The position numbers and the translations under genes were made by a program. Below are positions 26,353 through 34,006 of a stretch of 38,726 bases of DNA, one piece after another. The notes below the pieces were generated by a model. The model was not told the DNA's origin. It saw only the letters and a program-made list of their open reading frames with translations, and searched no databases. The stretch is taken from IMG/VR virus record IMGVR_UViG_2541047763_000005, positions 1-38,726 of that record. One strand, 5' to 3'. This DNA comes from a virus. Its lineage: Duplodnaviria; Heunggongvirae; Uroviricota; Caudoviricetes. Each line of letters begins with the position of its first letter. Positions within the stretch are counted from its first letter, which is position 1.

Positions 26353-27729
26353 TCATACGTCAGCCCCTTGTGCATATCGTCTGCCACGCGCAGCAGGTGC
26401 ATTTGATGTTGTGCAAATCTGTCTGGCTTCATCCTGGTCACATGCAACAAAGTGTCCGTTGCAGAACCGCTGGTAAACCGTACCAAGTGAGCCAAAACGG
26501 TTTTTCGTCACGATGATTTCAGCAAATGGCGCGGCGCTACTGTTCTCGTCATATACCGCTTCCCGATAGAGCATGATGATTGAGTCTGCGTCCTGTTCAA
26601 TGCTTCCTGAATCACGCAAATCTGCGTTTGTCGGGCGTTTGTTTGGTCGCTTCTCAACATCGCGCGAAAGCTGACTCAGGGAGATAACCGGTGTTTTCAG
26701 GTCTTTCGCCATCGCCTTCAGGCTTCCGGAGATGTGAGCAATTGCGAGGTCGTTGCGATCTGCTTTCGGCTTCTCAATCAGGCCAAGATAATCCACCATG
26801 ATGAGTGACAGGTTTGGATTTTCCTGTTTGTGCCGTTCTGCGATTGAGCGTATTTCTTCGACCGATAACCGCGAGGCATCGACTACCCATACATCCAAAT
26901 CTGCAAGCTGACTCATGCCGTTAGCAACACGCGCCCAGCCCTCGTCATCCATCGATGCAGGATTTCGCAGTACGCTAACCGACATCCTCCCGGCGTTGGC
27001 AATGCTTCGCTCTGCAATCTGTAATGCGCTCATTTCCATTGAGAAAATCAATACTCCACGCCGGATGTCAGAACCAGGAATAACACGACTTGCAACGCCT
27101 TCGGCAATCTTCAGCGCCAGTTCGGTTTTACCCATACCAGGACGAGCGGCGATTATCACCAGGTCTTCCGCGTTCATCCCTCCGGTGATGGCATCAAGTT
27201 CTTCGATTCCGGTCTTCAGGGTATCGGACTCTTCTCCGTTCCTCAGACGCCTGTCAAGCGTGTCAGTGTAGTCGGTGATGATTTCCCCTAACCGTACAGG
27301 TTTAACCTCGTCACGGGGCTTTCTGATGGCTGAAAGACGCTTTACAAGCTCATCCATCGCCTGACTCGATGCGTCGATGGTTCCGCTTTGGATTGGTTCA
27401 CGCATTTCATCCATGATTTCCAGCACCAGACGGCGGTGATAGTTATCCGCGACCATTCCGGCATATCCCTTCAGGTTTGCGGCACTCGGGCAGTTTTTGC
27501 TGGTCATCAGGATTGACGTGAAATGCTCCTCTCCGCACTCCTCGGCAACCATCAGCGCGTCGATTAGGTTTCTGTTTCGCGCCTGCTTGCGGATAACCTC
27601 GAAGGCTTTCCGGTAGAGCGGAATTGAAAACGCTTCCGGCTCCAGCGTTGCCAGAACGTCGCTGGCGGTTGGTGTTAATCCACCAATCAGCAGGCCACCG
27701 ATAACGCTCGCTTCGATATCCTGTCTCAT
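26353..27729 (-). CDS. replicative DNA helicase, DnaB family (P22 gene 12-like)
   Basis: 458-aa ORF with Walker A GMGKT, Walker [10 protein letters not shown] and DnaB-type N-terminal domain motifs; overlaps the initiator gene stop. Confidence 0.9.
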
Positions 27730-28673
27730 GCAATCCCCCTGTCTGCAAACTTCCCTTCCCGTACTCCCGTTAACGAATCTTCCCTCAGCAGGTAATCAAA
27801 ATCAGCCGTCCAGCCCGTGTCGTTGTCTCCGAAGTAAAACGGCTTGGCCTGATGCACAAACGCCCTGACATACGCTCTGAAACCGTCCACATTTGGCGTT
27901 TTCAGTTGCGGGATGATTTTCTTCAGGCGGCGTTTGCGTTTCTCGTTGACCGCAACAGCGTGTGGAAGTCTGTCACCGACTTCGGTGTTGTAGGCGTTCA
28001 GGAAGGATTCGTAGTCGATTCGTTCTGCCTTGCGACGTTCAGGTTTAACCTGCCCATCGCCTCCCCCATTGGGGGGTAGGGGGGTATTATTTATATTCTT
28101 GTTAATACCTTCTTGTTCATGATGTGCGGTTGTTTGTGCGGCTTCATGTGCGCTTTCATGTGCGGCATGTACGCTGAAAGCCGCGCCATTACTGGCTTCG
28201 TCATGTGCGGCATCATGTGCGGTTGTTTGTGCGGCTTCATGTGCTGGCGAATCGTCCATTTTTTGAGCATATTCATGGTAATTTGTGATGGTAATCACAC
28301 GACCTTTTTGCTTCTCTCCATCAATGGTGATCATCCCCTCTTTCACAAAAACCTGAAGCATCCGCTCAACCTGATCACGGCTTGCCGGCTTGCCATGCCT
28401 GTCGCATAACTGAAGACCTAAATCAGCTGCTGTCACAACCAGTTGACCGGGTTGCAGATGCCATTCATGACCTTTGAAATTCGCTTTGTATGGCTTTCTG
28501 GCGGCATTCAGGAGAAGGTTTTCCCACAGGGTGCGAAGATAAACATCTTTCGCCCATGACTGTTTCAGAATGCTCCGGTACAACGGAATGTAACCAGTTT
28601 TCTGGTTCTCCATCCTGTTGCTCCTGCGCTCGTGTGCGGCGCTGAAATCGTAGATTTTTGCTGTATTGCTCAT
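27726..28673 (-). CDS. replication initiator (lambda O / P22 gene 18 analogue) containing the origin iterons
   Basis: 315-aa ORF directly upstream of the helicase; internal repeats [10 protein letters not shown] encoded by DNA iterons; N-terminal DNA-binding-like region. Confidence 0.7.
28122..28244. repeat. origin-like iterons inside the initiator gene
   Basis: Perfect 30-bp direct repeat ATGTGCGGTTGTTTGTGCGGCTTCATGTGC at 28122-28151 and 28215-28244, plus about 8 copies of the core CATGTGCGG across 28117-28249. Confidence 0.6.
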
Positions 28674-29376: not shown

Positions 29377-29586
<210 letters not shown>

Positions 29587-29603: not shown

Positions 29604-29667
29604 TATCACCGCTAGAGGTAAAATAGTCAACACGCACGGTGTTAGATATTTATCCCTTGCGGTGATA
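29604..29667. promoter_or_regulatory. right operator OR1-OR2-OR3 with divergent PR and PRM, lambda type
   Basis: Three 17-bp lambda operators: OR1 29604-29620, OR2 29628-29644, OR3 29651-29667. PR -10 GATAAT and -35 TTGACT on the minus strand; PRM TAGATA / TAGATT on the plus strand; cI AUG is at the predicted leaderless start. Confidence 0.9.
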
Positions 29668-29674
29668 GATTTAA

Positions 29675-30391
<717 letters not shown>

Positions 30392-30398
30392 CACGTAA

Positions 30399-30836
30399 AT
30401 GATTAAAGAACGTATTTCTTATATCATTCCGATTGCGATGGATGAAGGCAACCCCGTAACTCCAGTTCTTATCTATGAAATGGATAAAGACTCCCATGAA
30501 GTGGATCTGTCATTTGGCGCTTTTTTTATCGGCCTTAAGGCTACAAAAAAATATTCCATAGGCATTGAGGTTTTCAATGCTCAAGAAATACCGATACCAA
30601 TTGACACAAAACTGTACTCCAACCATAAGTTTTTTACGGTAGCAGAAGCCAACGATGGAGAAACCATCGTATCAACTTCTATGAGAATTAACTTCCCAAG
30701 GGTGAAAATTATCAAGCCTGGGATATTCGAAGTTAGAGCATCACTGGTTAATCCTGAGAAAGGCGAAGTAATTGATGTAAAAAGTTCGTTTTTTGACGTG
30801 AAGATAACAGGATCAGTTCGCGATGAGTTTAGATAA
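30399..30836 (+). CDS. hypothetical soluble protein, first gene of the cI-linked cassette (rexA position)
   Basis: 145-aa ORF starting 7 nt after the cI stop with no strong ribosome-binding site; predicted beta-rich, no hydrophobic helix; AT-rich DNA; not RexA-like. Confidence 0.55.
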   Translation: MIKERISYIIPIAMDEGNPVTPVLIYEMDKDSHEVDLSFGAFFIGLKATKKYSIGIEVFNAQEIPIPIDTKLYSNHKFFTVAEANDGETIVSTSMRINFPRVKIIKPGIFEVRASLVNPEKGEVIDVKSSFFDVKITGSVRDEFR

Positions 30837-31146
30837 CAAGGTTACTCAGCTTCGTCCAAATCAAAACATATCTCGCCCAATTGGACACTATCCAACTGAT
30901 GATGCATACTCACGGCATGGTGGCGGCAATGGCGGAGGTGATGATGTGCTTCAAAGAGTGAAAGAACTCGAAAAAGATGTTCAGCAAATGAAAACCGACC
31001 TGGCTGTCATGCGCTCGAATTATGCAACCAAATCAGACGTAAGCGACGCGAAAACTTCGATAATTCTATGGGTTGTAGGTGCGGTCGTATCCTCACAACT
31101 CATACCAGCAATCCCCAAAATACTTGAAGTGTTTTTCCATAAATAA
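30823..31146 (+). CDS. hypothetical single-pass membrane protein with coiled coil, second gene of the cI-linked cassette (rexB position)
   Basis: 107-aa ORF overlapping the previous gene by 14 nt; Gly-rich N-terminus, heptad segment DDVLQRVKELEKDVQQMKTDLAVMRSNY, C-terminal hydrophobic helix ILWVVGAVVSSQLIPAIPKIL. Confidence 0.55.
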   Translation: MSLDNKVTQLRPNQNISRPIGHYPTDDAYSRHGGGNGGGDDVLQRVKELEKDVQQMKTDLAVMRSNYATKSDVSDAKTSIILWVVGAVVSSQLIPAIPKILEVFFHK

Positions 31147-31147
31147 C

Positions 31148-31176
31148 AACCCGGCCTCAGTGCCGGGTTTTCTTTG
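31148..31176 (+). terminator. rho-independent terminator ending the cI operon
   Basis: ACCCGGC-CTCAGT-GCCGGGT stem-loop followed by TTTCTTTG, 2 nt after the stop of the 107-aa gene. Confidence 0.6.
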
Positions 31177-31327
31177 CCTCTCGATCCCCACACCTAATAA
31201 CACAATAACCAATTGTATTTATTGAAAAATTGATAGATACAACTTGCTAAACAGTGCAATTCTGATCCCTCACCTACCAAACAATGCACCCCTGCAAAAA
31301 ATAAATCCATATAAAAAACATACAGAT

Positions 31328-31390
31328 AACCATCTGCGGTGATAAATTATCTCTGGCGGTGTTGACACACATACCACTAGCGGTGATACT
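31328..31390 (+). promoter_or_regulatory. left operator OL1-OL2-OL3 with promoter PL, lambda type
   Basis: OL3 31328-31344, OL2 31348-31364, OL1 31372-31388; -35 TTGACA (31362-31367) and -10 GATACT (31385-31390) with 17-bp spacing; the sequence is near-identical to the lambda PL region as I recall it. Confidence 0.85.
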
Positions 31391-31436
31391 AAACACATCA
31401 GCAGGAAGCTGGAAGCCAAACGGAACAGATTGGCAG

Positions 31437-31589: not shown

Positions 31590-31925
31590 ATGACGGTAAT
31601 CGTATACGGGAAATCAACATTCGCAGGAAATGCCAAAACTCGCCGTCATGAGCGGCGCAGAAAGCTGGCTATTGAGCGTGATGCTATCTGTAACATCATT
31701 GATTCTATCTTCGGCACAGACAGTGAGGAACCTGTTCAGGAGGCCCCAAGAAAGCGTTTAAGCCTTTCTGAAAAAGCAATATCACTCGGAAGCCTTCGCT
31801 GCAAGAATGCAGAAGAAGTCGAGCGTAAACAGAACCGTATTTACTACCGCAAGCCACGCAGTGAAATGGGCGTGACTTGTGTTGGTCGCCAGAAAATGAA
31901 ATTAGGCAGCAAACCACTTATTTGA
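31590..31925 (+). CDS. N: antitermination protein N (P22 gene 24-type arginine-rich motif)
   Basis: Start at ATG 31590 with a GAGGA ribosome-binding site; N-terminus MTVIVYGKSTFAGNAKTRRHERRRKLAIERD matches the P22 N RNA-binding peptide; C-terminus ...RIYYRKPRSEMGVTCVGRQKMKLGSKPLI is N-like. Confidence 0.8.
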   Translation: MTVIVYGKSTFAGNAKTRRHERRRKLAIERDAICNIIDSIFGTDSEEPVQEAPRKRLSLSEKAISLGSLRCKNAEEVERKQNRIYYRKPRSEMGVTCVGRQKMKLGSKPLI

Positions 31926-32880: not shown

Positions 32881-32998
32881 GCACTAACAACAGAATAAAC
32901 ACTGCACTGTGTATTCATTCCAACGAGTGAATACACGGAGCAATGTCGCTCGTAACTAAACAGGAGCCGACTTGTTCTGATTATTGGAAATCTTCTTT

Positions 32999-33025
32999 GC
33001 CCTCCAGTGTGAGGGCAATTTTTTT
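32999..33025 (+). terminator. rho-independent terminator-like hairpin upstream of the coiled-coil gene
   Basis: GCCCTC-CAGTGT-GAGGGC followed by AATTTTTTT; sits 12 nt before the ribosome-binding site and ATG at 33038. Confidence 0.5.
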
Positions 33026-33037
33026 GATGGAGGATAT

Positions 33038-34006
33038 ATGAGTGAAGTAACAGATTTAGTTGTTATTGAAAAAGCAAATGCAATGACTGTATTTCAGTCT
33101 GCCGACCAGATTGAAGAAATCCTTCAAAAGGTTGAACGTGAAGTTATGTCCTTTGTGCCTGATATCACAACAGCAAAGGGCAGAAAGGAGATCGCTTCTC
33201 TGGCGTATAAAGTTGCGCAGACGAAAACATATCTCGATGGTCTTGGCAAAGACCTTGTTGCTGAACTGAAGGAAATTCCAAAGCTAATTGATGCTAACCG
33301 CAAGACAGTGCGTGATCGCCTTGATGAACTGAAAGCCAAGGCGCGCCAGCCTCTTACTGATTATGAGGAGGAACAGGCACGGATTAAAGCCGAAGAAGAA
33401 GCTAAGGCAGCAGCTGAAGCTCTCGCAAAGCAAATTGAGTCTGATCATGAAATAGCTATTTTGATGGATCGCGAATTTGACCGCCAAAGAGAAGAGGCAA
33501 GACTCAAAGCGGAGCAGGAAAAGCGAGAGCATGAAGAACGCTTAAAAAGAGAAGCTGAAGAGAAAGCCAGAGCTGAAGCCGAAGCAAAGGCAAAAGCCGA
33601 AATTGAAGCAGCAGCAAGGCGAGAAGCAGAAGCTAAGGCCGCAGCGGAACGTTCAGAGCGTGAACGCATTGAAGCCGAGCAACGAGCACAGCGCGAAGCA
33701 AAAGAGGCAGCAGAACGAGCTGAAAGAGAAAAGCAGGCGGCAATTGAAGCAGAACGCCGAAAAGCACAGGAGGAGGCTGAACGAATCCGGCGCGAAGCTG
33801 AAGCAAAAGAGCAAGCCAGAATAGCAGAAGAAAAAAGAATCAAGGACGAAGAAGAGCGTAGAGCAAAGGATAAAGCTCACCGGAAAGAAGTTAATAACAA
33901 AATACTTGCTGACCTTATCAAGGTTGGCGCATCAGAAGATGTTGCTAAAAATATCATAACAGCCATCGTAAAAGGCGAAGTATTCGCAACAAAAATAACC
34001 TACTAA
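33038..34006 (+). CDS. coiled-coil protein with E/A/K/R-rich low-complexity core
   Basis: About 322 aa from the ATG preceded by GGAGGA; the central 200 residues are continuous EAxxKAxAE-type helical repeats; structured N- and C-terminal segments. Confidence 0.5.
   Translation: MSEVTDLVVIEKANAMTVFQSADQIEEILQKVEREVMSFVPDITTAKGRKEIASLAYKVAQTKTYLDGLGKDLVAELKEIPKLIDANRKTVRDRLDELKAKARQPLTDYEEEQARIKAEEEAKAAAEALAKQIESDHEIAILMDREFDRQREEARLKAEQEKREHEERLKREAEEKARAEAEAKAKAEIEAAARREAEAKAAAERSERERIEAEQRAQREAKEAAERAEREKQAAIEAERRKAQEEAERIRREAEAKEQARIAEEKRIKDEEERRAKDKAHRKEVNNKILADLIKVGASEDVAKNIITAIVKGEVFATKITY

Follow-up and report, generated by a model that had tools for sequence, protein, structure and literature searches.

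The 38,726-nt stretch of viral DNA analyzed here (IMG/VR record IMGVR_UViG_2541047763_000005; hereafter the window) carries two genes, orfA and orfB, directly downstream of a lambda-type cI repressor gene, in the place where lambda has rexA and rexB. The pair is most likely an accessory (moron) cassette that belongs to the repressor operon, is expressed in the lysogen and likely protects it from other phages. We put the probability of anti-phage exclusion of some kind at roughly 0.55. This functional claim is drawn from position and architecture; neither homology nor a structure match nor a published phenotype contributes to it.

The slot between cI and Timm

We aligned positions 30340-31420 of the window with the cI-rexA-rexB-OL region of lambda. 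Homology to lambda is kept to the end of cI, is lost at the start of the cI-rexA spacer and restarts at AACCCGGCCTCAG(T/C)GCCGGGTTTTCTTTGCCTC, which corresponds to the lambda terminator Timm; from there the two sequences are near-identical across the operators OL3-OL1 and the promoter PL. Thus, a 755-bp cassette replaces rexA-rexB base for base. The first-pass annotation, made from the sequence alone, had placed an operon-coupled two-gene cassette in the rexAB slot, and this exact cI-to-Timm replacement bears the argument out. It also generalizes to about 90 prophage loci, described below.

The repressor gene cI (29678..30391, plus strand) encodes a 237-aa protein of lambda immunity type and LexA/S24 family. 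The immunity regions of lambda, HK97 and HK544 share ~92% nucleotide identity with it, and the cI of an identical prophage in E. coli LR-60 is annotated as a LexA family protein. It is followed after a gap of 7 nt by orfA (30399..30836, plus strand; 145 aa, phrog_5893, epsilon34 gp45 family), which overlaps orfB (30823..31146, plus strand; 107 aa, phrog_6324/6136, epsilon34 gp44 family) by 14 nt, confirming the tight coupling to cI that had been claimed. There is no terminator between cI and orfA. The strong terminator noted earlier after the pair is Timm (31148..31177, plus strand; AACCCGGC-CTCAGT-GCCGGGTT + TTCTTTG), with a hairpin at 31148-31169 whose 8-bp stem contains 6 GC pairs and is followed by the T tract TTCTTTG. 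The element aligns with lambda Timm and is annotated as Timm in HK544 and CL707, and it closes the tightly packed cI-orfA-orfB unit. As judged from this layout, orfA and orfB would be transcribed from PRM (-35 TAGATA at 29643-29648, -10 TAGATT at 29666-29671) in the lysogen and from PRE while lysogeny is established. A search for an internal promoter like lambda PLIT gave 6 promoter-like sites versus 4.9 expected, none of them significant. The pair had also been described as more AT-rich than cI (GC 0.437), which is true of orfA (0.379) but not of orfB (0.432), whose composition is close to that of cI.

The cI-N slot has been recognized as a mosaic hotspot: rexAB and bstA are both found there, under the repressor promoter (Owen et al., PMC8585504). 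Among lambda-immunity phages we found two hypothetical genes in this slot in HK544 (c104/c103), a single 301-aa gene in CL707, hicAB in mEp234 and HK106, and gp48/49 in HK97. The window cassette has the hotspot and the repressor promoter in common with these phages, with 434 Hex and with BstA of prophage BTP1 (PMC8585504). The encoded proteins are nevertheless unrelated to OrfA and OrfB; BstA is a single large protein that acts at phage replication sites, and Hex modulates repressor cleavage. Since most of the characterized cargo (rexAB, bstA) excludes other phages, phage exclusion is the favored function for orfA-orfB as well. A further uncharacterized pair occupies the cI-to-Timm slot in prophages of E. 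coli CRECJHTL34 and 702/18 (L011:2499-3502 and L012:2499-3502). It consists of a 106-aa protein and a second one of 227 aa, which ends in a coiled coil and a transmembrane (TM) helix; the latter protein is annotated as 'CCDC90 family' and scores 28 bits against PF07798, below the gathering score of 33.5. This pair and the window cassette have their last bases and the Timm hairpin in common.

Compared with lambda RexA/RexB, the slot is the same to the base, the frame of promoter and terminator is the same, and in both cases a soluble gene comes first and a membrane gene second. A logic of sensor plus membrane effector is a candidate for what the pair has in common with RexAB and with the RexAB-type system RexABpp of P. 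putida. The proteins themselves are unrelated, as had been proposed: hhalign assigned probabilities of 0.2% to a relationship with RexA and 0.25% to one with RexB. RexA, 279 aa long, binds DNA as a dimer, and RexB spans the membrane with four TM helices (PMC12894663), whereas OrfA is modeled as a beta-sandwich of 145 aa and OrfB combines one TM helix with a coiled coil of the trimer type.

Architecture of OrfA and OrfB

Neither protein has a significant match in Pfam or NCBIfam. PHROGs does contain both, with full-length profile matches of phrog_5893 to OrfA (E 3.4e-64, 1-140 of 140) and of phrog_6324 and phrog_6136 to OrfB (E 1.8e-17 and 2.8e-15), all three being families of unassigned function. 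The earlier statement that the pair could not be assigned to a described family thus agrees with Pfam, NCBIfam and PADLOC, in which nothing significant was found. Both are real genes, because orfA has a dN/dS of 0.115 relative to its epsilon34 homolog and intact homologs occur in many genera.

OrfA had been described as a soluble 145-aa protein, in accordance with its lack of a signal peptide and its confident all-beta model (predicted local distance difference test, pLDDT, 87). This model confidently predicts a cytoplasmic 8-strand beta-sandwich. The nearest predicted structures are M1PKK7 and A0A2P1JU14 from BFVD, with TM-scores of 0.65-0.70 at 14-17% identity. These are uncharacterized proteins of 134-142 aa, and one comes from a phage that infects a Gram-positive bacterium (Anoxybacillus phage A403). 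Searching PDB sequences with an OrfA profile returned noise only (best IgA1 protease, E 0.1). We propose that OrfA acts as a variable specificity or sensor subunit.

OrfB consists of a variable N-tail (residues 1-33), a Gly-rich linker (34-43), a heptad coiled coil (44-68), a beta-layer motif (Y69-A70-T71-K72-S73-D74) and a TM helix (~80-100) beyond which only ~8 residues remain. The coiled coil and the single C-terminal TM helix reported in the first pass are borne out by the 4-3 spacing of the hydrophobic residues V44, V48, L51, V55, M58, L62, M65 and Y69, by the presence of a single hydrophobic segment at the C-terminus and by the AlphaFold2 monomer, which forms one long helix from residue 40 to 105. 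Its pLDDT is 57, falling below 50 at residues 70-74, and because of this low confidence the model was excluded from the fold search. The C-terminal helix is predicted to insert into the inner membrane, leaving the N-terminus on the cytoplasmic side (tail-anchored topology).

The family alignment shows how unevenly OrfB is conserved. An N-tail of ~20-40 residues varies and leads through the Gly-rich linker (HGGGNGGGDD) into the strongly conserved helix MLQRVKxLEKDVQxMKTDxAVxxSNYATKxDV, and the C-terminal hydrophobic helix exists in at least 4 unrelated versions. The T, K and D of YATKxD are nearly invariant across the family; in the window protein, YATKSD (69-74) follows 3.5 heptads and precedes the TM helix by ~10 residues. 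An OrfB family profile matches PDB entries 5APZ, 5APX and 5APW, aligning YATKxD to their MATKDD beta-layer. The matched entries are trimeric crystal structures of alpha/beta coiled coils constructed by Hartmann et al. (PMC4786415). The same work defines the beta-layer motif and counts the DUF1640 membrane proteins among the families that have one (PMC4786415). Based on the heptad coiled coil and on this alignment, we predict OrfB to be a parallel trimer with a beta-layer at Y69-A70-T71.

OrfB has the layout of DUF1640/CCDC90-like proteins, that is, a heptad coiled coil, the beta-layer [aliphatic]-A-T-K-[polar]-[D/E] and then a C-terminal TM helix; unlike them, it begins with a variable N-tail and a Gly linker and depends on a partner gene. 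The CCDC90-like family PF07798 has no match in window OrfB, and a distant relative, P0109, reaches 13.4 bits against a gathering score of 33.5. Small size, a coiled coil and a C-terminal TM helix are also found in XhlA (PF10779), the lysis-associated membrane protein of Bacillus PBSX-like phages. Window OrfB does not match PF10779 at E <= 1, and P0103 and P0109 score 11-14 bits (gathering score 34.7). Judged by Pfam thresholds, OrfB thus belongs to neither the XhlA nor the CCDC90-like family. An XhlA-type lysis cassette was rejected: in the window and in the ~90 loci, the neighbors of OrfB are repressor, partner and terminator, and there is no holin/endolysin setting. The OrfB allele of the E. 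coli E2348/69 and PK5 prophages has a 39-residue N-tail as in the window and a different, weakly XhlA-like C-terminal half; the E2348/69-type protein (P0085) scores 21.6 bits against the gathering score of 34.7 and carries the NCBI label 'hemolysin XhlA family'.

A tethered beta-sandwich might instead act in lysogenic conversion unconnected with phages. OrfA would then bind a host envelope intermediate (e.g. a lipid-linked glycan on the cytoplasmic side) or a host membrane protein and alter surface or stress physiology. We rate this as the most improbable of the explanations considered.

Distribution and exchange of the module

At the DNA level, the relatives of the pair are genes 45/44 of Salmonella phage epsilon34, genes 40/39 of g341c and a pair in NM-3, all of them directly after the repressor and ahead of OL/PL/N. 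They are true homologs in the same position, with ~73% amino acid identity for OrfA. Unlike the window, epsilon34 has a different repressor and immunity type, and its OrfB homolog has a different TM type. The epsilon34 genome paper of 2008 noted that genes 44/45 belong to the operon of the repressor 'like rexA and rexB' and lack database matches (PMC2629481). When 50,697 phage records were searched with OrfB using tblastn, only epsilon34, g341c and NM-3 were recovered; with homologs in only three sequenced phages, the module may have escaped study. Among 5426 complete E. coli genomes, 40 gave a DNA match and ~16 of these 40 contain orfA, including LR-60, enteropathogenic E. coli E2348/69 and PK5. 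The PK5 pair is preceded by a different repressor with the same 7-nt gap.

More distant OrfB relatives occur in Photorhabdus, after an Arc repressor in an ant-type moron, and in Klebsiella, after the HTH_3 repressor of a Rac-like prophage. Each is abutted by a protein of ~140 aa that is a distant OrfA homolog (25% identity over the full length; 31% over 61 residues). Photorhabdus asymbiotica (FM162591) contains two copies of the module in one genome (L005 and L006), in the tail-gene region of a myovirus-like prophage. There it lies after the Arc repressor and beside a KilA-N protein and a Hok/Gef toxin, an arrangement resembling an immI/ant-type moron.

A scan of IMG/VR added 80 loci, and 90 loci with an OrfB homolog were compared. 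An iterated OrfA profile detected 51 open reading frames, all 51 abutting an OrfB homolog on its upstream side and none elsewhere in the 90 loci. At 29 of the 90, the partner is instead a zinc-ribbon protein of 90-130 aa (signature CxxC...CxxCG), which likewise follows the repressor (for example L074:4597-5252, L052:1972-2509 and L089:1501-2128). Eight loci have another partner and two have none. Zinc-ribbon partners and the L011 cassette gave nothing above noise in Pfam; in PADLOC the zinc-ribbon partners, the other OrfB types and the L011 pair gave short and weak hits throughout (best E 4.7e-4). The GC content of the loci ranges from 0.40 to 0.64, and one high-GC locus has flanks similar to phages of Burkholderia, Pseudomonas and Ralstonia. 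Within 150 nt past the OrfB homolog, 57 of 78 non-redundant loci have a terminator-like hairpin, versus 40 of 282 random windows.

The order of a putative antidote gene before orfB, the 14-nt overlap and the small protein sizes resemble those of type II toxin-antitoxin operons, and a bona fide toxin-antitoxin pair, hicAB, sits in the same slot of mEp234 and HK106. The pair could accordingly be an addiction or stabilization module, with OrfB as the membrane toxin, OrfA or the zinc-ribbon protein as the antidote and effects on phages incidental at most; the weak XhlA similarity of the E2348/69-type OrfB allele (21.6 bits) points the same way. However, the partner lacks a DNA-binding domain with which to regulate its own operon, transcription would start at the repressor promoter, Pfam and NCBIfam return no toxin-antitoxin family and some OrfB relatives have no partner, which makes this explanation improbable.

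The gene upstream of the pair, as classified in 72 non-redundant loci, carries Peptidase_S24 in 35, HTH_3 in 32, Phage_CI_repr in 9, Arc in 4 and Mnt in 2. The repressors thus belong to unrelated folds (S24, HTH-only, Arc). The window and the E2348/69 prophage (L004) further differ by a dS of only 0.021 in orfA and of 0.44 in the adjacent cI, indicating a recent exchange of the cassette independent of the immunity gene, with a recombination joint right at the cI stop codon. Both observations render a repressor-specific role of the 434 Hex type unlikely. Hex, made from the PRM transcript, blocks RecA-mediated repressor cleavage (PMC3564112) and is a precedent for cargo of the PRM operon that modulates the prophage's own cycle, be it the induction threshold, the lysogeny decision or lysis timing. 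Two uncharacterized genes past the ST64B CI repressor, which have no demonstrated relation to the pair, reach high expression when cells are shocked with peroxide or nitric oxide (PMC7067206), and the XhlA-like similarity of one OrfB allele would also suit a role in the life cycle. Against this stand the different phage types in which the module follows S24, HTH-only and Arc/Mnt repressors, its exchange independently of cI and its absence from lysis cassettes, and we give such a role a low probability too.

In order to compare how the two proteins diverge, we used 37 non-redundant pairs of the beta-sandwich class. Averaged over the pairwise comparisons, identity is 24% in the partner, 21% in the N-tail of OrfB and 46% in its coiled-coil/TM part (C-part). 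In 29 comparisons the C-parts are >80% identical and the partners <35% identical; the converse is seen between the window and E2348/69, which have partner and N-tail in common but not the C-part. As partners diverge, so do the N-tails (Spearman 0.166, Mantel p 0.0005), but C-part divergence shows no such correlation (Spearman 0.065, p 0.13). This pattern is suggestive of OrfB being a conserved stalk in the membrane, with a rapidly evolving partner docked on its N-tail. As the partner and N-tail segments neighbor each other on the DNA, we do not take the covariation as proof of interaction.

Proposed function and its setting in the window

Within anti-phage exclusion, a RexAB-like mechanism of the abortive infection (Abi) type, in which a sensor signals to the membrane, is a possible, tentative reading. 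The N-tail of OrfB, on its flexible Gly linker, would dock a soluble partner, which is OrfA here and the zinc-ribbon protein in other prophages. The partner, as the fast-evolving specificity subunit, would recognize a component of the infecting phage on the cytoplasmic side of the membrane. The signal may then be relayed to OrfB, whose TM helices are rich in small-xxx-small motifs and could reorganize or cluster. The membrane barrier or the proton-motive force would be lost and the infection would abort before progeny release, so that unrelated proteins would follow the RexA/RexB logic. Prophage-expressed two-gene systems acting against heterotypic phages are also found in the actinobacteriophages Sbash (30/31), Butters (30/31) and CarolAnn (43/44). 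Each of these pairs combines a cytoplasmic with a membrane protein and has been compared with RexAB, while hosts and proteins are unrelated to those studied here.

Superinfection exclusion, with survival of the cell, would explain the position of the cassette just as well. The OrfB trimer would display OrfA on the cytoplasmic side of the inner membrane, where OrfA would block genome entry by binding the ejection proteins or tape-measure protein of related phages, or the route by which these cross the inner membrane. Superinfection exclusion proteins of prophages are typically small and located in the inner membrane, as are P22 SieA, HK97 gp15 and T4 Imm. The exchangeable TM types on a conserved stalk suit an anchor or scaffold, and a fast-evolving partner suits an arms race with phage entry proteins. 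Known proteins of this kind are, however, single genes and usually have periplasmic loops, for which the short C-terminus of OrfB beyond its TM helix leaves little. Both OrfA and OrfB would face the cytoplasm, i.e. they would lie past the entry point, and the Pfam and PADLOC searches revealed no homology to a superinfection exclusion family. We therefore consider a block of genome entry unlikely and favor the Abi-type mechanism over it.

Several observations weigh against the proposed defence function as a whole or against this mechanism. PADLOC-DB v2.0.0 contains no match to OrfA or OrfB, no phenotype is on record for any member, and the literature found on the pair is limited to the epsilon34 genome paper. 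The slot also houses non-defence cargo such as 434 Hex (PMC3564112). Structure comparison shows the OrfA fold to be generic and yields no functional lead; the OrfB monomer model is of low confidence (pLDDT 57); and the covariation of partner and N-tail could equally stem from the two segments being physically linked. The most distant OrfB relative, the 80-aa P0109 (L096:5001-5243, on a JGI metagenome contig), has neither N-tail nor partner and is flanked by housekeeping genes (obg, proB, a SnoaL-like gene and endonuclease III), hence the coiled-coil/TM core exists outside prophages too. A trimer of single-pass helices offers no obvious pore, making a channel unlikely, and since the TM segment is swapped among at least 4 unrelated types while the coiled coil is conserved, a generic anchor fits better than a specific channel. 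The idea of an ion-channel effector is thus weakened by the single TM helix, the predicted trimer, the exchangeable TM types and the non-phage distant relative.

Around the cassette, the immunity region reads as follows. We mapped the OR and PRM coordinates from the annotated lambda-immunity region of HK544, whose cro and cI have a constant offset to the window. The gene cro lies at 29377-29577 on the minus strand, and lambda-type operators OR1-OR2-OR3 with PR (minus strand) and PRM at 29604..29671, as identified by sequence reading and a hexamer scan. By these coordinates the cI mRNA from PRM would be leaderless, with the ATG as the first codon of the message. Downstream of Timm, OL3-OL2-OL1 and PL occupy 31328..31390 (plus strand), PL consisting of TTGACA (31362-31367) and GATACT (31385-31390) with a 17-nt spacer. 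The right-hand boundary of the slot is an N-type antiterminator gene, the first of the PL operon (31590..31925, plus strand, from the list of open reading frames), with the Arg-rich motif GNAKTRRHERRRKLAIER, which we take to be of the P22 gene 24 type. A P22-type N beside lambda-type operators and repressor would make the immunity/antitermination region a mosaic; the gene was not called by PGAP in the identical LR-60 prophage.

The remaining window is a P22-like (CUS-3/720R6-like) prophage. Its PL operon encodes at 32984-34006 a 340-aa protein extremely rich in E, A, K and R, which related prophages annotate as 'cell envelope biogenesis protein TolA', probably a low-complexity annotation artefact. 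A replication-initiator-like reading frame at 27726-28673 (minus strand) contains repeated HEAAQTTAH / DAAHDEA peptide motifs that probably correspond to origin iterons within the gene, as in lambda O.

The existence and position of the pair, from epsilon34 in 2008, and the variability of the slot were already known. The structural assignment of both proteins, the prediction of a beta-layer and trimer, and the widespread repressor-operon module with interchangeable partners are not described in the literature found. With somewhat less than an even chance, the pair founds a widespread, hitherto unrecognized prophage defence family that rides the repressor operon, in which a trimeric, tail-anchored beta-layer stalk would recruit through its N-tail interchangeable sensors (beta-sandwich or zinc ribbon), from Enterobacterales to loci with Pseudomonas/Burkholderia-phage-like flanks. 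Should no anti-phage phenotype be found, the case would caution against guilt-by-position annotation of this hotspot. If the proposal is true, the cassette is a third unrelated module in the slot after rexAB and bstA and a new protein architecture for prophage immunity, designed as a conserved membrane stalk with a swappable specificity subunit over a wide GC range. It would also provide the first bacterial function for membrane coiled coils of the beta-layer/DUF1640 type. Finally, the natural mixing of partners, N-tails and TM types supplies ready chimeras for studying how a signal passes from cytoplasm to membrane, which for RexAB has been an unanswered question for 60 years.

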